Assembly: GCA_001772865.1 (NCBI GenBank)
Contig: MEVD01000015.1
Span: 9,084 to 73,083 of the forward strand
Length of the DNA stretch: 64,000 nucleotides
Source: a candidate division WWE3 bacterium RIFCSPHIGHO2_02_FULL_38_14
Lineage (GTDB): Bacteria; Patescibacteriota; WWE3; UBA101185; UBA10185
Direction: 5' to 3'
In this document: piece after piece, positions 27,359 to 36,581 of the stretch
Layout: every line of letters starts with the position of its first letter
Numbering within the stretch: position 1 is the first letter of the stretch
Program-made: the position numbers and the translations under genes
Notes under the pieces: model-generated
What the model was told of the DNA's origin: nothing
The model's database searches: none
What the model saw: the letters and a program-made list of their open reading frames with translations, nothing else

Positions 27359-30300
27359 CTACTTTTCTGTGTGCGGACTTTCCCCATTACCAGAGGCTTC
27401 ATCAACGCTTTTTTTTGATCTACCTTTTAAAAGTCTTCTGGCATCAATTCCTTTAACAACAAATAGAGTACTGGCAATTACCACTGCCATTACAACGGCA
27501 GCAAACACTACGAAAATCATAATAATCAGAACCCGGCTTTTCGGCGAATAATTTGCATTAAATATTGCCGCAAGCTGTCCACCCAAAGGAGTAGTTGTGC
27601 CTTTGCTAATAACAAGGTTTCGCGACGTTGTTACTACCTGAGCTTCGGACCTTCCGCTTATTTCCGGTGAATACATTAAAGACACAGTCGCAGGCGGAGT
27701 TAGAAATTCACCTTCACTCACCACCCGCGCCTTATACGAATAACTAAATTTTCCAGTAGGAACACTGTACAACGACATTACTACTCCGTTTTGGGTATAC
27801 TCACGCACATAATAATTGTAGCCATAATTATAGTAATAATGAGTAATTAAATTCGAGTCGGATTTCTTTTCGTTATCGAATTTGTAATTTATAGGAACCA
27901 TGCCAGCAGGCAGCTGGTCTTCTAAAACTCCGTAACTTTCAGAATACGCCAGTCCTTCAACAATTAAATTAACATTTACAGTTTCGCCGACCGATAATGA
28001 ATAAGCGGGATTTTTGCTGTTTACATATTCTCTACTTATAGAAATTCCGTCTGATCTTTTTGATGTTTCAACTGCTGTTCTAAATTGATCCAGAACCATT
28101 GTGGAATACAACTGTCCGGTGCCTTCTTTATTAACTTTTAAATTTATTGCGTTTCCTTTTTTAATTCCCTTTAGATCTAAAGTATTTATTTTCTGCTTTG
28201 CGGATGTAACTGCTCCAGAGGAAATCACGTCATCGCCCAACATAACTTCATATTTAAAATCAGGATTCAGTTCACCGACAGATTTTGAATACTCAACCAG
28301 CGCCCGCATAACCTGGACAGTTCCAAAAGTGTTAGACCAGTAGTCGTGTTTTCTGCTGTTAGACAAATATCTTACTCCTTTAAAAATAGTATCTTTATCC
28401 ACATTAGCCATAATCAAAGCGTTTACTACCAAACCTGTTGAAGCATCTCTTGAACCGAACCTGTCTCCGGCACCACTTTCCCAGAATAAACTCTCTCCTT
28501 GTTTTACTGCTTTGCTCAATATTAATGAAACACCGTTTTTGGAGTTATCTTTGAAACCGTTTCTAATGTTCGCCATAACTCCATACGCAAGTACATCAGG
28601 AGTCATGTCATTACTCAAGCTCACAAAACTCTTTCCCTTATCCGAACCCATCACTGATAATGAATAAATCCTAATGGGATCCAATAACGAATTCGGCTGT
28701 GCATTTTCCAGATACATTTTGGAAGAAGTAAGTAAATCATCTACCGCTCCAGGTTTTAAAGTATCAAGCAAAACCAAATATTCCGCTACATATGAGGTAA
28801 TACCAACATCTGAAATCTTTGAGCTCCACCAACTCCACCCGCCGTCCCAATTCTGCATAGCCCTAAGCCTTTCCAATCCTTCGTCAATCATAGCGTCAGT
28901 ATTTTTTTCTTTCAAAGCTTCCGAAAGAATATCTGGATTACTGGCAGCAATTATTACGGGAACCAGTCTGCTGGTAGTTTGTTCAATACACCCGTAGGGA
29001 TAGTTAACCAAATATTTCATAGAGGAAAGCATCGATCCGGTTAAACTCGAAGATAAGAACAATTGATAATTTGATTCTGATTCTAAAACGTCTTCGGGGA
29101 TATTGATTTCATAAGATGCGGAGTCATATTTAGTTGAAGCGGTTTTTTCTTTATAACCGAAATTTTTAATTGGGAGCTCAACTGTTATGGTATCGGAATC
29201 TTCTTCATTTTCAGTTGAAACAGCCGAATAAGTAAATTTGGTTTTTTCGTTAGCGAACCCGGGAATATAATCCCAATAAATCTGTTTAACACTATTGGAA
29301 CTTATTTGAACCGGATTAGTTAAGCCACGTAAAGGAAGCTCCCTTGATCTGCTCAAATCATTACCGCCATTTTCCTCAACTTTCAGTGAAACTTCAAAAG
29401 TCGAATCATTGTCGGTGTAATTTTGAACCAAAGACGACATTACCATTTTATCTCCCACTCTCGCCAGATTCGGATGGATTGGCCTTACAATAACGTCTTT
29501 TGTAACCACAATTTCTTTTGTGGACTGCCCAACCTGTGTTTCACGGGTATCCGCTATGTCGGAAATTACCCAGGTCGTCAAATTATCGGGCAGTTTAACC
29601 GTAACCGTAGCCTTGCCGCTCTCATCGGTCTTTAAAGAAGGATTCCAATAAGCAGTATCTTTAAAAACGGTTCTGGGAGCTGATGTACCTCCTTTGTCAT
29701 TATGTACCCATACTCCACCGGCAAAATAAGTGTGGTAATTCTCAACTTCCAAGTTATAAACAGTAACACTGTCCAATACCCATTCCACCGATCTCACTTC
29801 CGCACTGCTTCCGTCCAATCCCAAAAGCAAGTCTCCCGTGTCAATATTTCCGGCGGTTTTCCAAGTGTCATTAATTCTTAAAACATGTTCGGGAGTTACT
29901 TTTAAGTCGCCGTTAATAATTAAATATCCTTCAACATCAGTTTTGTGGACATTTAAAACTTTGGCTTTAACCAATTCCCCCGAATCATAGCTCTTTCTGG
30001 TTAAAACATACTCACCGGGTTCAACTTCTGAAATATGTTTAAACACATTTCCTTCAGTAAGAACTAATGTATCTCCGGTAAAACACCCCCCGTATCCGCC
30101 GGCGGCATCCATGCTGATACTCTCCAAAGAATTTGAAAATCCCGTCTCGTTAAATCTTTCCGACCAAAAAGCGTCAAAAATCTTTCTGCCATCAGGAGGA
30201 AAAAGCTCGAAAAGTGCTTTATCTACAATCCACAGCGCCGTATCAGCCGAAACAGGCCTTCCGTTATTATCTTTGGTTTCCACCTGTATCTCAACATTCT

Positions 30301-32638
30301 CTCCCGGACCAAATTTCTCATCTTCGGTTCTGATTTTAACATTAAGCTTTTTCGACTCCGCCGGAACCGAAATATTTAAATACTTGCTCTCAAATTTCGA
30401 TCCCGAAAATATTCCCACATTTACAAAAATGTTCGGCATGTCAGTTTCCTCAAGTTTCAGCTCAAACACTTCTGAAGGCTTAGAAATATGCATTACCTGA
30501 TACCTGTTTACATAATTCCTGTGAAAAGAAATAAAGGCGTCAGTATTTATTTCCCTCGAAGAAATTAAGAGCTTCACGGTATCACCGGGCTTGTACTCTT
30601 TTTTATCCAACTGCATTTCAAATGCCTGAGGATTTTCCGAAGAATAAAACGGATACCTGTCATCATAAACCCACGAAAAAAATGTTTTTTCAAGAGTATT
30701 GCCGGCTTGGTCGGTGGCGGTAACTTTAAATCTGTAAGAACCCGGAAGATCAGGAGTAATCCTAAAACTCACATCACCTTTTGAATTTGTTTTTTCAGTC
30801 ACGTTTGCTATAGGATCCACCCGCATTTCATATGTGGGGTATTTTGACTCCGGTTTTTTAACTTCCACCCAATATTCCCGCGTCACCTGGGCATTAACTT
30901 GCACACCTGAAACATTAGAATCCCTGTAGGGAAATAATATTAGGGGAAGATCCAGTGGCTGATTGATTCTGTTAGAATACGAATATTCATCGCTTCTGAA
31001 AATTCCAAAATTTGCCGGATAGACTAAAATATTTCTTTGATCAGTGCTGGGATTGCCCGATCCGTCGTCGACCGTGGCCTCAAAAACATATATCTTCGGA
31101 TCAGGAGATTTTAAAGTAATTACATTAACGTCTGTTTCGCCGTTTTCATCCAAAAATATACTACCTTCAACTATTTTGTTCCCCGAACTGAACCAATACC
31201 CGTACCTGTAGTCGCTCTCGCTGAATCTTCTGGAATCGGAATAATATTCATATTCATAAATATCGTGGGCATAAACGGTATACGTTACAGAAACTCCGCT
31301 CAAAGGCTGCCCTGAAAAATAATTTCCTTTTAACTTAAAGTCAAATATATCGCCCGCAACCGCTTCGGTGATGGGAGTATCAACTTCAATAAAATATTCC
31401 GGCTTCCTGAAGTATTCAACATTAATATAAGCATAATTAACATCCGGCGAACCTGCGGCATTAATCATAATTGTATAGTTTCCTGTTTTGGTTTTTTCCG
31501 GAATCAACGACTCACCAAAAACCGTGCCATCGCCCGAAATATTTAGCCGTTCGTTGTAAATTATATTTTCGTTCTCATTCCAACCGTAATAAATTTTTAC
31601 ATTGGCCGCACCCTGTGGGATTGAATATTTGGCATCGTTATCCGACCTAATAATAGATTTAAAGTAAATGGTATCTCCGGGCCTGTAAATCGGTCGGTCA
31701 GTGAAAATAAAATATTTTGAATTCTTTGTTTTTTCCTCATACCCCGTCCAGCTCCATCCCCAGTTCAATGATGTAAGGTTCATAGGAATAAACGAAACAC
31801 TGCCACCTGATTCCGCAACCGCCAGATCCGCCCGCTCATTATAACTTGTTGTAGAAATTCCCTGGGCATCAAAACGGTCTTCATCGAGCTTTTCTATTCT
31901 GTTCAACAGGTTATAAGTGCGCACAACCCCTTCAGTAATGACCTTTTTGCTTTTATAATTTTGCCCCCAGAATATAAATTCGTTTTCGCCCTCGGTAGAC
32001 ATAACTCCGAAATTGCTCACAACGGCAAATGACTGTTTGTTTAATCCGCCGATATTTACATCAACCAGCCAGATCCCAGGCTTGCCCGAAGGCAGGTTTA
32101 CAGTTGTAGAAGCGCTTTTTACATCTGTAACATTCAGTGAAAATGAGCTCGCTTTTTCCAGACCGGATGTGCTGAGGCTTTTATCTACCTGATTAAACTC
32201 TTTGTCGTGTATCAAAAAGGTTAAAAGATTATTTGTGCCGGCATTATACAAATCCACCGTAAGCTTGCCGGTGACATTTTTAATATTTATTTCAATCTGG
32301 GGATTTTCAAGATCGCTGAAATTAATTAAACCCTGCATTCCACCGTAATAAAACTGTTCTCTGAGTGATTCGATTTTGCGGATGCCTATTTCGGGAGGAA
32401 TTTCTTCCGTACTTGCTAAAACCGCTGAATCACCCGCACTGCCGGGCTCAAATGCAACAGGCTCTTCCAGATTTTCCTGAGCAGTCTGCAAATTTGTTAA
32501 TTTACTTTTAAGTTCCGCGTTTCGGGCTAAACGGCTATTCTGTGATAAACCATCTAATTTAACGGTCTTAAAAATAAACAATCCGGAAAAAACAATTAAT
32601 AATAGCGAGAAATAGGTTATTAAGATCTTTTTAGGCAT
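27359..32638 (-). CDS. Alpha-2-macroglobulin family protein (thioester-containing), TM-anchored at both termini, with Hint/BIL domain inserted at the bait-region position
   Basis: 1759 aa. N-terminal TM/signal. Thioester motif YPYGCIEQTTSRL about aa 1217. TED-like MQNWDGGWSWW. Post-bait motif PRTVFKDTAYWNP. C-terminal TM IIMIFVVFAAVVMAVVIAS. Hint domain about aa 855-983. Confidence 0.85.
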   Translation of the reverse strand: MPKKILITYFSLLLIVFSGLFIFKTVKLDGLSQNSRLARNAELKSKLTNLQTAQENLEEPVAFEPGSAGDSAVLASTEEIPPEIGIRKIESLREQFYYGGMQGLINFSDLENPQIEINIKNVTGKLTVDLYNAGTNNLLTFLIHDKEFNQVDKSLSTSGLEKASSFSLNVTDVKSASTTVNLPSGKPGIWLVDVNIGGLNKQSFAVVSNFGVMSTEGENEFIFWGQNYKSKKVITEGVVRTYNLLNRIEKLDEDRFDAQGISTTSYNERADLAVAESGGSVSFIPMNLTSLNWGWSWTGYEEKTKNSKYFIFTDRPIYRPGDTIYFKSIIRSDNDAKYSIPQGAANVKIYYGWNENENIIYNERLNISGDGTVFGESLIPEKTKTGNYTIMINAAGSPDVNYAYINVEYFRKPEYFIEVDTPITEAVAGDIFDFKLKGNYFSGQPLSGVSVTYTVYAHDIYEYEYYSDSRRFSESDYRYGYWFSSGNKIVEGSIFLDENGETDVNVITLKSPDPKIYVFEATVDDGSGNPSTDQRNILVYPANFGIFRSDEYSYSNRINQPLDLPLILFPYRDSNVSGVQVNAQVTREYWVEVKKPESKYPTYEMRVDPIANVTEKTNSKGDVSFRITPDLPGSYRFKVTATDQAGNTLEKTFFSWVYDDRYPFYSSENPQAFEMQLDKKEYKPGDTVKLLISSREINTDAFISFHRNYVNRYQVMHISKPSEVFELKLEETDMPNIFVNVGIFSGSKFESKYLNISVPAESKKLNVKIRTEDEKFGPGENVEIQVETKDNNGRPVSADTALWIVDKALFELFPPDGRKIFDAFWSERFNETGFSNSLESISMDAAGGYGGCFTGDTLVLTEGNVFKHISEVEPGEYVLTRKSYDSGELVKAKVLNVHKTDVEGYLIINGDLKVTPEHVLRINDTWKTAGNIDTGDLLLGLDGSSAEVRSVEWVLDSVTVYNLEVENYHTYFAGGVWVHNDKGGTSAPRTVFKDTAYWNPSLKTDESGKATVTVKLPDNLTTWVISDIADTRETQVGQSTKEIVVTKDVIVRPIHPNLARVGDKMVMSSLVQNYTDNDSTFEVSLKVEENGGNDLSRSRELPLRGLTNPVQISSNSVKQIYWDYIPGFANEKTKFTYSAVSTENEEDSDTITVELPIKNFGYKEKTASTKYDSASYEINIPEDVLESESNYQLFLSSSLTGSMLSSMKYLVNYPYGCIEQTTSRLVPVIIAASNPDILSEALKEKNTDAMIDEGLERLRAMQNWDGGWSWWSSKISDVGITSYVAEYLVLLDTLKPGAVDDLLTSSKMYLENAQPNSLLDPIRIYSLSVMGSDKGKSFVSLSNDMTPDVLAYGVMANIRNGFKDNSKNGVSLILSKAVKQGESLFWESGAGDRFGSRDASTGLVVNALIMANVDKDTIFKGVRYLSNSRKHDYWSNTFGTVQVMRALVEYSKSVGELNPDFKYEVMLGDDVISSGAVTSAKQKINTLDLKGIKKGNAINLKVNKEGTGQLYSTMVLDQFRTAVETSKRSDGISISREYVNSKNPAYSLSVGETVNVNLIVEGLAYSESYGVLEDQLPAGMVPINYKFDNEKKSDSNLITHYYYNYGYNYYVREYTQNGVVMSLYSVPTGKFSYSYKARVVSEGEFLTPPATVSLMYSPEISGRSEAQVVTTSRNLVISKGTTTPLGGQLAAIFNANYSPKSRVLIIMIFVVFAAVVMAVVIASTLFVVKGIDARRLLKGRSKKSVDEASGNGESPHTEK
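29699..30075 (-). other. Hint (Hedgehog/intein) domain, bacterial-intein-like, embedded in the A2M ORF
   Basis: Block A CFTGDTLVLTEG (Cys1 codon 30073..30075), block B KVTPEHVL (TxxH), blocks F/G VYNLEVENYHTYFAGGVWVHN (Asn codon 29699..29701). The +1 residue is Asp (DKGG), so canonical splicing is not expected. Confidence 0.8.
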
Positions 32639-33757: not shown

Positions 33758-33831
33758 TGGGGGATCGTCTAATGGTAGGACACCAGGTTTTGGACCTGGG
33801 TATTGGGGTTCGAATCCCTGTCCCCCAGCCA
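33758..33831 (+). tRNA. trnQ: tRNA-Gln (anticodon UUG)
   Basis: U1:A72 acceptor TGGGGGA/TCCCCCA and discriminator G (typical of bacterial tRNA-Gln), anticodon stem CCAGG/CCTGG, loop TTTTGGA, T-loop TTCGAAT, CCA. Confidence 0.85.
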
Positions 33832-34135
33832 GAATAGGAACCCATAGCAGTCCGTTTCCTATATATTTCTTTTGATCACTGATAAAACCCGTTAGTTTAA
33901 AATTTAATTTTTCAAAACCAAATTCCGAAAACTTAAAAACTGGTTGCGTGTTTCAATAAATTGAATTGACATGACCTCACACTTACTCTACAATCAATAT
34001 AAGTACAAACATTATAAGAAATAGTTTAATAGCTTTCTATACGAATTTAACAAAAACTAATAGAGATATAGTTTCTGCACTTTTAAATATTAATTTGACT
34101 AAATAATTTTTTTTAGCATTATTGTTCATTAATCT

Positions 34136-34188
34136 CTCGGGAATTGAATTGTCAAGAAGATATGCTTCTTGATAGCTTTATTCCCGAG
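34136..34188. other. Nested perfect hairpin at the AT-rich to GC-rich transition
   Basis: Outer stem CTCGGGAAT/ATTCCCGAG (9 bp) encloses an inner palindrome TCAAGAAG-atatg-CTTCTTGA (8 bp). Confidence 0.6.
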
Positions 34189-34304
34189 GGTATGGGGGTC
34201 CGAGTCATAATTAAGACTCATACAACGTACCTCCCTTCCAGTTTCGACTGGATGAGCCCAAAAAACACGGACAAGCGTCTCCAAACCAGATGCTGCTAAT
34301 AGGG

Positions 34305-34551
34305 CATGAATTGGTTCCAGGAATGGACCGACTAGCCCGAGTCAGCGAAGAGCCATCAAAGGCATATGCGCTTTGATGGTATCCTCACGTGAATACGCGT
34401 GATGAGCTGGTTTGATTCGTGAGTTGACAGGACCGCGAGCGATCCGCGGGGTATAAAGTGAGTGCCTCTCTCTAACAGGGCAGAATAGAGGGAGTATTGA
34501 TTTCTTATATCTGGGTGACATGAATTGGTTCCAGGAATGGACTAACTAGCC
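34305..34551. repeat. Pair of 33-bp direct repeats (CATGAATTGGTTCCAGGAATGGAC[C/T][G/A]ACTAGCC) 214 bp apart in an ORF-free GC-rich segment
   Basis: Copies at 34305..34337 and 34519..34551, 31/33 identical. The surrounding 34189..34880 has no ORF of at least 60 aa on either strand and many local hairpins. Confidence 0.7.
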
Positions 34552-34904
34552 ACCCAGAAACAGAGAGATCAGCCATAGGTCGTTTAACTGTCTGTTTAAT
34601 CGACTTAAACATTTTCACAGACTCGGGTGAATGACTGGTAAACATTTACCTTGATGAGGGCTTACCCTTCTTCTTTCCAGGGCAGGGAGGAAAAAGTATG
34701 CTGTTGCCACCTGATGTTACTTAGATGGAGTAACAGCTTGGAGATGTCACCGGATAGGTAGAATTGATTTTCGAAACGTCTGCAGCGTTTGGAGAATTAG
34801 TCTACCCAAGGGTACGTGTTTACCCGTCCCTTCCGAAAGGGAAAAGCCAAAATTAGGTATACACCGTTCTGTGCCAACGTTTGGCACTATATGTGAGGAT
34901 AGAA

Positions 34905-35387
34905 ATGAAACGTTTGTATCTCCCACTAGTCATTGCGCTTCTCACAGCCATGCTCGTGGCTCCCGTGGCCATGGCCGCTGGTCCCGATCACGACAACAAC
35001 AACGCAAAGGCCAACGCCCCCGGTCAAGTCGCGAAGAACTCCGAAGACACCGAGGACAATGGTTCGACCTACGCTCCCGGCGTTCTGGCCAACGAGTCGG
35101 AAGACCCCGACGACAATGGCTCGGATTTCGCCCCCGGCCAGCTGAAGAAGGCTGAGGACGACACCGTCACCGATGCACCCGTCACCGACTCTACCGGCGA
35201 CAATTCCGACGGCGACAACAACAACGCAAAGGCCAACGCCCCCGGTCAAGTCGCGAAGAACTCCGAAGACACCGAGGACAATGGTTCGACCTACGCTCCC
35301 GGCGTTCTAGCCAACGAGTCGGAAGACCCCGACGACAATGGCAAGACGTACGCTCCCGGCCTGCTGAAGAAAGCAGAGCCACGCTAA
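34905..35387 (+). CDS. High-GC secreted repetitive acidic protein (D/N/E/G-rich, YAPG motifs)
   Basis: ATG at 34905 with GAGGA SD. Signal peptide MKRLYLPLVIALLTAMLVAPVAMA. The gene is about 63% GC against about 33% for the window. A 43-aa unit is repeated twice. The track ORF 34881 starts at an upstream TTG. Confidence 0.5.
   Translation: MKRLYLPLVIALLTAMLVAPVAMAAGPDHDNNNAKANAPGQVAKNSEDTEDNGSTYAPGVLANESEDPDDNGSDFAPGQLKKAEDDTVTDAPVTDSTGDNSDGDNNNAKANAPGQVAKNSEDTEDNGSTYAPGVLANESEDPDDNGKTYAPGLLKKAEPR
34991..35342. repeat. Two near-identical 130-bp direct repeats inside the GC-rich gene
   Basis: 34991..35120 and 35213..35342 differ at 1 position (ctggcc vs ctagcc). Confidence 0.8.
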
Positions 35388-35401: not shown

Positions 35402-35452
35402 CCCGGTCCTCCAGTTCTTGTCACATCAATGATACAAGACTGGAGGGCCGGG
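35402..35452 (+). terminator. Long GC-rich hairpin downstream of the GC-rich gene (terminator-like, no U-tract)
   Basis: Stem CCCGGTCCTCCAGT / ACTGGAGGGCCGGG (13 of 14 bp) with a 23-nt loop containing its own TCTTGT..ACAAGA pairing. Begins 15 nt after the stop codon. Confidence 0.5.
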
Positions 35453-35541: not shown

Positions 35542-35871
35542 ATGAACAACTATGAAATAAAAGGTGAAATATTTACTTTTTTCGCAGCACTGTTTTTAGC
35601 ATTAAATACTATACTTGGTAGATATTTTGCTTTACAAATAGCACCATTATTACCATGGTTTTCCAGAAACGTAATTAATTTTCTGATTTTACTCACATTA
35701 CTCAAATTATATAAACCAAAAGGTTATATAAAGATTAATAAAAACGATTTAGCAAAGATTTTCTTAAGTGGAATTTTCTTTACATTCTCCAAAGAGCTGG
35801 CGAACTTCTTTGAAAATTTAATGGAGATGGAAAAAGAAATACAAATAGTTCTCTCTGCTCGATTTATCTAA
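35542..35871 (+). CDS. Small hydrophobic ORF, possibly a remnant of a degraded membrane-protein gene
   Basis: 109 aa hydrophobic. No motifs. Followed by 380 bp with only broken reading frames. Confidence 0.3.
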   Translation: MNNYEIKGEIFTFFAALFLALNTILGRYFALQIAPLLPWFSRNVINFLILLTLLKLYKPKGYIKINKNDLAKIFLSGIFFTFSKELANFFENLMEMEKEIQIVLSARFI

Positions 35872-36255
35872 TCCTGGATTGACTTCATGGATTTATTATA
35901 TACATTATAATTTCTTTTGTTAGTATTAATAATATAAATGACTTGTTATATTTATTACAAATATGATGGTAAATGCGGACTTGTTAGCTAACAGAATATA
36001 TTTTCTAAAAAATCTACCAGACGCATCTTAGAAAACAGTAATATTAAAATCTATTTTAGGACTATTTTTAGGAATCTTTCTGTCATTATTAATAAATTTA
36101 ACAATTTTTAGATTAATAGGATTAACAAATTTAGATTATTTAACAAGTCTTATTGTTAGTATATTGGTTCAAGATATTACACTATTAATAATAATTTATA
36201 TTTTATTCCATAACTCTTCAAAAGAAGACATTTTTAATTAACTATTTATAGAAAT

Positions 36256-36492
36256 TTGCGAAAAAGAGGGATTTTAATCGCTCTCATAATCAGATCTATA
36301 CTCTTTTCTATTTTTCATGGGAACTCAAGTATCCCTTTCTCATTTCTTTTTGGTATTGTCATGGCATTATATTACGAATTTACTAATAATTTCCCTAGAA
36401 CTGTAATAATTCACGCATTACACAATTATATAAATACTTACTATGCGACATTTTTACTTCTAGTTTTTTTCAAACAGCTTACAAATTTGTGA
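36256..36492 (+). pseudogene. C-terminal fragment of a CPBP (CAAX protease/Abi) family intramembrane protease
   Basis: Contains CPBP motif 2 (SIFHGNSS, FxxxH) and motif 3 (IHALHNYIN, HxxxN), but the EExxxR motif-1 region upstream is in disrupted frames. Confidence 0.45.
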
Positions 36493-36519
36493 ACTTTGAT
36501 CGTTGTATTAGACCTATAG

Positions 36520-36548
36520 TTGACAATTATCCGTTAGTATTATAAAAT
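36520..36548 (+). promoter_or_regulatory. Candidate sigma70-like promoter of pgsB-pgsCC copy 1
   Basis: Perfect -35 TTGACA at 36520..36525, and TATAAA/TAAAAT in the 15-17-bp spacing window, about 35 nt upstream of the ATG. The same TTGACA architecture occurs upstream of copy 2. Confidence 0.4.
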
Positions 36549-36581
36549 CCCCCCAACCAGTATTGTACTATTGGTATTATT

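Follow-up and report, generated by a model that had tools for sequence, protein, structure and literature searches.

What does the long, GC-rich segment encode that lies between a tRNA-Gln gene and the gene for a secreted repeat protein in a candidate division WWE3 bacterium? The DNA analyzed here (the window) is a chromosomal stretch of 64,000 nucleotides (nt) from this uncultured groundwater member of the Candidate Phyla Radiation (CPR), with A2M, capBC and YdjC as neighbors of the locus; the same DNA is also found in NCBI GCA_001772885.1 and in several ENA and JGI groundwater assemblies. A sequence-only reading had proposed that positions 34189-34880 are a large structured non-coding RNA or a decayed element. 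The first half of this proposal is better supported, by folding, GC content, conservation and the pattern of substitutions, while the second half has no support. Judged from its sequence, the segment is probably a functional, structured plus-strand RNA that would act in cis or in trans. The feature is also larger than first stated: conservation extends over a block that starts at 33832, ends at the start codon at 34905 and also comprises a predicted promoter and a 53-nt 5' hairpin.

The composition of the segment is unusual for this genome. As the sequence-only reading had claimed, neither strand of 34189-34880 contains an open reading frame (ORF) of at least 60 amino acids (aa), the longest having 59 aa, and there is none of this size in the entire 1,073 nt between tRNA-Gln and the ATG at 34905. 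The GC content is elevated as described, with 0.42-0.52 in windows of 200 nt vs 0.24-0.27 just upstream and ~0.34 in the whole window (~34% for window and genome overall); for the core at 34189-34880, the value is 46-52%. The first 300 nt after tRNA-Gln are AT-rich (24-27% GC), and the rise in GC starts at ~34130. The intergenic region 33832-34880 (1049 nt, 40.5% GC) is the longest internal and the GC-richest one in the window; the other eight intergenic regions of more than 150 nt have a GC content of 25-35%. A long intergenic region with a GC content well above that of the others in an AT-rich genome, which is the criterion used in searches of GC-rich intergenic regions (GC-IGR), is thus present here. 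The segment had also been placed directly downstream of a tRNA. It does lie downstream, but is not adjacent, as tRNA-Gln ends at 33831, which is 358 nt upstream.

The hairpin density of the segment exceeds chance, and the excess of folding stability is asymmetric between the strands, favoring the plus strand. The minimum free energy (MFE) of 34130-34900 is -285 kcal/mol on the plus strand (z -9.0 vs shuffles) and -248 kcal/mol on the minus strand (z -5.5). In a sliding scan with windows of 200 nt across 24-44 kb, the background had a z of -0.2 +/- 1.4. Plus-strand z values between -1.5 and -6.5 were obtained in every one of the nine successive windows from 34000 to 34800, and comparably low values were otherwise found only in the adjacent windows at 35300 (z -9.8) and 35400, over the hairpin at 35402-35452 that ends the next gene. 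Single hairpins reach a z of -7.1 (34136-34188), -5.4 (34352-34380) and -6.4 (34755-34808). The diverged allele of a sister lineage, which is described below, folds with a z of -6.4.

The local stems named in the sequence-only reading could be located. GAGTC-n8-GACTC at 34202 and CCCTT-CCGA-AAGGG at 34828 are exact; the stem CCATCAAAG-n9-CTTTGATGG starts at 34353 and not at 34352, and the CCGCG/CGCGG stem starts at 34433 with a 7-nt loop, not at 34431 with a loop of 6 nt. The suggested long-range pairing to GACTCGG at 34620 is possible, but there are two competing partners and the sister allele has a mismatch at 34624 (C>A). The predicted fold has the following main elements:

34136..34188, plus strand: 53-nt hairpin with 24-nt arms (-26.9 kcal/mol, z -7.1) at the 5' edge of the GC-rich core
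34189..34888, plus strand: GC-rich, ORF-free, hairpin-dense core with ~30 predicted helices; 236 consensus pairs including the 5' hairpin
34305..34337, plus strand: copy 1 of a 33-nt repeat, predicted bulged hairpin GG-N-UCC AGGAAU GGACC, closed by GGGC/GCCC
34433..34449, plus strand: hairpin CCGCG-n7-CGCGG with a compensatory G-C to A-U change (alignment columns 308/316)
34467..34493, plus strand: pyrimidine-arm/purine-arm hairpin of module A with a CAGGGCAG loop; counterpart at 34671-34692
34519..34551, plus strand: copy 2 of the 33-nt repeat, closed by UCUGGGUG/CACCCAGA (z -3.1)
34656..34669, plus strand: hairpin GAGGG-CUUA-CCCUU with a compensatory G-C to A-U change (alignment columns 529/538)
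34671..34692, plus strand: pyrimidine/purine hairpin of module B with a CAGGGCAG loop
34757..34806, plus strand: long G.U-rich hairpin (z -6.4) within the most conserved part
34871..34887, plus strand: 3' hairpin GUGCCAA-CGU-UUGGCAC without a good U tract, 8 nt before the Shine-Dalgarno (SD) sequence

The 33-bp direct repeat pair reported earlier is confirmed, with identity at 31 of 33 positions. Its 21-nt core has no further match in the window even if three mismatches are allowed; shuffles give ~0.01. In the sister allele, copy 1 carries changes at 34315, 34329 and 34330 and has become identical to copy 2, and copy 2 carries a U>A change at 34529, which is the same change as that of copy 1 at 34315. 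The copies thus show concerted evolution, by gene conversion or through a shared partner. Each copy forms, together with a pyrimidine/purine hairpin with a CAGGGCAG loop, one of two broadly similar modules. Beyond the 33-nt repeat, internal duplication is visible only as a weak local alignment (score 73 vs a shuffle maximum of 55), and we therefore term the modules similar and do not regard them as a proven duplication.

Relatives of the segment were sought by synteny, by the downstream protein and by degenerate motif scans in viral, metagenome and genome collections. All collections together yielded a single diverged allele, on contig L007 of a sister lineage, which is the same over the block in L031 and L032. 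One non-coding sequence is shared by all seven window-type contigs and the other by all three L007-type contigs. Distant-mode blastn searches of phage (50,697 records) and plasmid collections gave no match to the segment, and four IMG/VR pattern scans returned chance hits or none. Apart from the two alleles already known, the motif scan of JGI metagenomes detected only two matches in coding DNA of AT-rich marine origin, which are due to chance, and a relaxed motif had 0 hits among the GTDB species representatives. The 306-aa protein encoded upstream of tRNA-Gln has only four homologs in 5.8 billion proteins. One of these, 78% identical and located on L007, gave the diverged allele; the remaining ones are on short contigs with other genes after the tRNA. 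A capB-synteny scan of the genome collection found nothing, with 63-64% identical capB relatives lacking the block and one relative of 90% identity (P0007) having no contig on record. Homologs of the downstream ORF come from the same species only, and its sole database relative is annotated as candidate division WWE3 bacterium RIFCSPHIGHO2_12_FULL_38_15.

On L007, the block is located 1.8 kb downstream of tRNA-Gln and begins at a copy of the tRNA 3' end (CAGCCAGAATAGG). The insert between them (L007 3503-5332) contains a gene of 158 aa and one for a mannosyltransferase, and is flanked by direct repeats CAGCCA(A/G)AATAG that correspond to the 3' end of the tRNA. Such an arrangement resembles an integration at a tRNA; the L007 contig contains no integrase. 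Since the two genes separate the block from the tRNA while the right flank is syntenic between window and L007, the block and the downstream ORF travel together.

Conservation between the two lineages is far higher in the block than around it (window vs L007):

A2M gene: 72% nt identity, synonymous divergence (dS) 2.1
306-aa gene: 81% nt identity, dS 0.87
Spacer before the tRNA: 75% identity
Non-coding block, 33832-34904: 94-95% identity, divergence (K) 0.05-0.06
Downstream ORF: 72.5% nt identity, nonsynonymous divergence (dN) 0.24, dS 0.88, dN/dS 0.27

Ordinary spacers at the locus are 73-75% identical. Within ~10 nt of the start codon at 34905 the identity falls, with 11 differences in the first 81 nt of the ORF. 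Inside the block, 34010-34120 is the least conserved part and 34748-34888, with a single difference, the most conserved one.

The substitutions that separate the alleles tend to spare the plus-strand fold. RNAalifold finds, among the 236 consensus pairs, two compensatory changes (34437/34445 and 34658/34667, each G-C to A-U) and 14 one-sided ones, all of which preserve pairing; this count is biased, as the consensus fold was optimized on the same two sequences. Scored against the MFE structure of one allele, 14 of 24 substitutions at paired sites keep pairing on the plus strand and 5 of 20 on the minus strand. As a control, the same substitution types were re-dealt to random positions. The real substitutions break 10 pairs on the plus strand vs 15.1 +/- 2.4 for the random sets (P 0.03), and 15 vs 15.2 on the minus strand (P 0.54). 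Their folding-energy cost is below random on the plus strand (P 0.04 and 0.005); on the minus strand, the values are P 0.16 and <0.005 (0/200 random sets). One-sided G.U-type changes are compatible with the plus strand only, and the sister substitutions in the arms of the 34136-34188 hairpin (U.G>C-G, U-A>U.G) keep pairing on this strand alone. Transitions and transversions number 23:15 in the structured core and 6:12 in the upstream AT-rich part, which is a trend only (P 0.09). The structure-sparing substitutions suggest an RNA fold, and we consider this support genuine but modest.

Which molecule would carry this fold? The signals around the core are as follows:

33758..33831, plus strand: tRNA-Gln(UUG) gene (ARAGORN and Rfam), left edge of the conserved non-coding block; no difference from the sister lineage (100% identity)
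33834..33873, plus strand: predicted terminator-like hairpin after the tRNA, AUAGGAA-n15-UUCCUAU followed by AUAUUUCUUUU
33966..33994, plus strand: sigma-70-like promoter TTGACA-17-TACAAT (11/12 positions), predicted start near 34001
34895..34907, plus strand: Shine-Dalgarno sequence GAGGA and ATG; allele divergence jumps directly after
34905..35387, plus strand: gene for a secreted acidic repeat protein with a signal peptide followed by SED-x-DDNG-x-T(Y/F)APG repeats
35402..35452, plus strand: long hairpin that would end the transcription unit, with arms of ~20 bp and no U tract; 85% conserved in L007

The terminator scanner did not call the hairpin after the tRNA because its stem has only two G-C pairs. 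Both promoter hexamers are intact in the sister allele, the lone change being at spacer position 33978. Between this promoter and the ORF there is just one weak promoter-like site (9/12, at 34095), which is not conserved, and the promoter scan found none in the final 780 nt before the ORF. Terminator-like sites are likewise absent from the stretch after 34670 and before the ORF, with one weak call in the middle of the core (34656-34670). Given the conserved promoter at 33966-33994 and the lack of a promoter or good terminator before the ORF, the RNA probably forms one transcription unit with the secreted-protein gene. Transcription of the proposed RNA, its 5' and 3' ends, any switching and any partner are inferred.

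We tentatively interpret the RNA as a mainly cis-acting, unusually long and densely folded leader of the downstream gene. The structured RNA would be the 5' part of a self-contained plus-strand unit of ~1.45 kb, in which the promoter is followed by a poorly conserved AT-rich part of ~130 nt, the 53-nt hairpin, the core of ~700 nt, the SD sequence and ATG, the repeat protein gene and the terminal hairpin. The 5' hairpin and the compact fold would protect the transcript. At the 3' end, the 34871-34887 hairpin is mutually exclusive with a predicted GCCAAA/UUUGGC plus GGUAUA/UGUGCC pairing, so that two alternative structures would be available beside the ribosome-binding site, along with the putative 8-nt anti-SD sequence AUCCUCAC (34381-34388). 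Together, these elements would set the level of transcription and translation of the downstream gene, and one partner would have two equivalent places to dock in the 33-nt hairpin modules. The 34871-34887 hairpin itself may be a leaky terminator or a processing site.

Two short sequences in this region deserve mention. AUCCUCAC in the core is the perfect complement of GUGAGGAU (34893-34900), which covers the SD sequence of the downstream gene; one of the eight pairs is lost in L007 (34894 T>A). The word AATTGAATTG(A/T)CA(T/A)GA occurs at 33959-33974, over the -35 hexamer of the promoter, and again at 34142-34157 in the 5' arm of the 53-nt hairpin. It could be a repeated protein-binding site.

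The downstream gene is linked to the structured block in both lineages. Its product varies between 86 and 234 aa among otherwise near-identical strains or contigs, by repeat copy number. The GC content at third codon positions (GC3) is 0.73, vs 0.23-0.37 for the other 36 tabulated genes of the window, and is high in both lineages despite the dS of 0.88. The dN/dS of 0.27 indicates that the ORF is coding and under purifying selection. The protein matches no Pfam family, and its only NCBIfam hit is below threshold (18 bits vs a cutoff of 247) and was regarded as noise. Diversification of this variable ORF by a diversity-generating retroelement was rejected since its internal repeats do not differ in an adenine-specific manner; no screen for a reverse transcriptase was made elsewhere in the window.

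Several observations weigh against a functional RNA in general or a leader in particular. Stems are not depleted of substitutions, as 24 of 38 are at paired positions compared to a paired fraction of 64%. Of the 10 substitutions that break MFE pairs, one (34624) is located in the predicted domain-closing helix. With two alleles only, the covariation is thin, consisting of two pairs and tests at P ~0.03. The conservation may also have another cause. Contig L033 (527 kb) is the same as the window over ~20 kb except in two places. One is a 222-nt insertion of repeat copies within the downstream ORF. The other, at L033 10899-11009 (33647-33757 in the window), is a group of clustered differences that is 100% L007-type and spans the region between the final codons of the 306-aa gene and tRNA-Gln. 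The window and L007 lineages have thus recently recombined at exactly this locus, which weakens the argument from conservation. Identity is also mosaic inside the 306-aa gene, with 90-98% in the last 150 nt, and the high conservation of the block could therefore reflect gene flow instead of selection. In addition, the AT-rich DNA at 33832-33965, upstream of the predicted promoter, is conserved as much as the core, and RNA structure cannot explain this part. Finally, a leader of 900 nt would be several times longer than any characterized bacterial leader that we know of. Gene flow, on the other hand, would require a tract that ends at the ATG, and it accounts neither for the excess of folding and the asymmetry between the strands nor for substitutions that spare the structure.

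Known families offer no identification. The sequence-only reading had named an Rfam search as a check, and this search matched nothing except tRNA in Rfam 15, neither at the gathering threshold on the 64-kb window nor at E<=10 on 1301 nt or on 181 nt; the last search covered the sub-region with words resembling RNase P and would have listed hits of 9-13 bits. Models without a match include RNase P, GOLLD, ROOL, OLE, introns, riboswitches, T-box and other leaders, and small ribozymes. A group I or group II intron was rejected due to the missing intron match and the absence of an ORF in the region for an intron-encoded protein. The segment thus belongs to no known family. If real, it would add a new class, with a very narrow distribution, to a kind of molecule that is already known.

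A first alternative to the leader is a stand-alone, trans-acting "ornate" RNA of ~750 nt. The 34871-34887 hairpin would release it, through termination or processing, and it would serve as a scaffold, ribonucleoprotein or homo-oligomer like OLE, ROOL or GOLLD, the downstream gene merely sharing its promoter. Size, GC enrichment and helix density resemble those of ornate RNAs rather than leaders, the constraint on the RNA (K 0.05) is far above that on the protein (dN 0.24, dS 0.88), and the two similar modules would provide two equivalent interaction surfaces. OLE is likewise co-transcribed with its neighbors. The position downstream of a tRNA is one often taken by GOLLD and ROOL (PMC12286853). 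However, no convincing terminator or U tract follows the RNA, and relatives occur in one sister lineage only (JGI metagenomes, GTDB representatives, IMG/VR, phage and plasmids were searched), unlike the known ornate classes, which are widespread. The caveat of gene flow holds equally here. Altogether we consider this alternative rather unlikely. The same holds for its most far-reaching form, an undescribed ornate class confined to one lineage of WWE3 (Katanobacteria, CPR) that would consist of two similar modules with an identical 33-nt bulged hairpin in each, would be under an rRNA-like sequence constraint, would act in trans and would be genetically coupled to a hypervariable, secreted, Ca-binding-like repeat protein.

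A second alternative, which we rate as just as improbable as the first, holds that the segment no longer functions as an RNA, or never did. Block and ORF, both GC-rich, would form an island of foreign origin, whose non-coding part would look conserved only due to its recent exchange between the two co-occurring lineages by homologous recombination, and the hairpins would be relics or incidental. This would account for the L007-type patch on L033, for the mosaic end of the 306-aa gene and for the last 138 nt of an EamA-like ORF further downstream, which are 100% identical between the lineages. It also agrees with the conservation of AT-rich DNA upstream of the promoter, the foreign-looking GC3 of the downstream ORF and the even distribution of substitutions across stems and loops. 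However, the exchanged tract would have to end within ~10 nt of the start codon and leave out the ORF with its dS of 0.88. Nor does it explain the z of -9 with its strand asymmetry, the substitutions that spare pairing and energy, or the persistence of non-coding DNA with 46-52% GC in a genome of 34% GC.

That the block works at the level of DNA, as an operator array or as a recombination or integration region beside a tRNA, is very unlikely. The presence of the AATTGAATTG(A/T)CA word both at the -35 hexamer and in the palindrome at 34136-34188 (5' arm) would fit, as would the variation among relatives of the region after tRNA-Gln and the two-gene insert of L007 between its CAGCCA(A/G)AATAG repeats. 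Such an element would not give the asymmetry of folding in favor of the plus strand or G.U-compatible changes, 700 nt of GC-rich hairpins are unlike operators or att sites, and there is no integrase nearby.

Even less can be said for a decayed protein-coding gene, the other half of the earlier proposal, which included the possibility of frameshifts. An ORF-free region with coding-like GC might suggest such a remnant, but the ten longest six-frame pieces of the segment gave nothing above noise in Pfam at E<=1, and the alleles differ by indels of 1-2 nt with a long ORF in neither. The segment is moreover better conserved than the adjoining live genes, and decay gives no reason for the z of -9. 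We thus regard this explanation as highly improbable.

The resemblance to RNase P RNA that had been noted comes down to words that are present and that no covariance model supports: ACAGAGAG (34560), a hairpin, GGGUGAA (34625) and GGUAAAC (34637), which we take, as a lead only, to recall the conserved regions CR-II, P12 and CR-III. That the segment is a diverged RNase P RNA, or stems from the specificity domain of one, can practically be dismissed, as none of the three Rfam searches returned an RNase P model (RF00010/RF00011) and no P4 pairing of CR-I with CR-V could be identified by eye. The similarities are limited to CR-II- and CR-III-like words of 7-9 nt.

The wider neighborhood has some further peculiarities. 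Nine tRNA genes are scattered over the 64 kb (12037-62508), all on the plus strand and without forming an array. Two long AT-rich stretches (25% GC) at 35872-36581 and 1-1526 contain no ORF of at least 100 aa, and one of them is directly upstream of the capB/capC poly-gamma-glutamate genes. An alpha-2-macroglobulin-like protein of 1759 aa (27359-32638, minus strand) carries an inserted Hint / PT-HINT / intein-like domain at residues ~850-980, between the bait region and the A2M domain. The EamA-like ORF mentioned above (35542-35871, 109 aa) matches EamA only weakly. L007 lacks the 32 N-terminal codons of this ORF and the preceding AT-rich spacer, one patch of 17 codons is strongly variable, and the identical last 138 nt are free of synonymous changes. 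The ORF may represent a fragment of a gene or a further constrained or exchanged segment.

Apart from rRNA, RNase P and tmRNA, bacteria have few large structured RNAs, and each new class (OLE, GOLLD, ROOL, raiA) has exposed an unexpected RNA architecture. In the literature searched, we found no description of a large structured RNA of this kind from the CPR. Due to the tiny size of CPR genomes, 1 kb of non-coding DNA under constraint comes at a high cost. If real, the RNA would be a compact, sequence-defined target for cryo-electron microscopy or chemical probing, and it would give access to the control that an episymbiont exerts over a surface or secreted protein that is abundant and evolves fast. 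If the block is instead a relic homogenized by recombination, it is a caution that, under gene flow, non-coding DNA that is more conserved than coding DNA is not by itself evidence of function.

A methodological parallel is the GC-IGR approach, in which candidates for structured RNAs are taken from GC-rich, long intergenic regions of AT-rich genomes (PMC6429828, PMC8632094, PMC11109978). The segment resembles such candidates in both respects, as no other intergenic region of the window is as long or as GC-rich, but the pipelines demand covariation over many representatives, whereas two alleles are available here.

Among known RNAs, GOLLD and ROOL (RF01998, RF03087) are often encoded near tRNAs (PMC12286853). 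They are large (~580 to >800 nt), multi-helix, GC-enriched and ORF-free, and the segment is similar with ~750 nt and a tRNA-Gln 358 nt upstream. It differs in that it has no match to their covariance models, including the conserved 3' domain of GOLLD, in that it is found in chromosomal CPR DNA and not in a phage or prophage (no homolog was detected in the phage collection or in IMG/VR), in its confinement to one genus-level group instead of many phyla, and in its fusion to a protein-coding gene.

OLE (~610 nt, from extremophiles among the Firmicutes) is comparable as a large ornate RNA within a protein-coding transcription unit. The OLE operon has a gene for a small envelope-directed protein immediately downstream. 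The segment differs from OLE (RF01071) in lacking an Rfam OLE match, and its neighbor is a secreted, strongly acidic repeat protein without a family, not a basic membrane protein of the oapA type. OLE has the OAP protein as a partner (PMC3413148). Being strongly acidic and secreted, the downstream protein of our locus is an unlikely RNA binder.

The comparison that bears most directly on a cis-acting leader is that with long 5' leaders, such as those of ompA and S-layer genes, riboswitches and T-boxes, through which the mRNAs of envelope or secreted proteins made in abundance are stabilized or gated. Known long structured leaders have ~100-300 nt. Here, a structure of ~770 nt would be part of a leader of ~900 nt that matches no known cis-regulatory family. 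The arrangement is nevertheless that of such leaders: the structure is located between a strong predicted promoter and the SD sequence of an exported protein, it has a 5'-terminal hairpin and alternative pairings beside the SD sequence, and no promoter or terminator intervenes.

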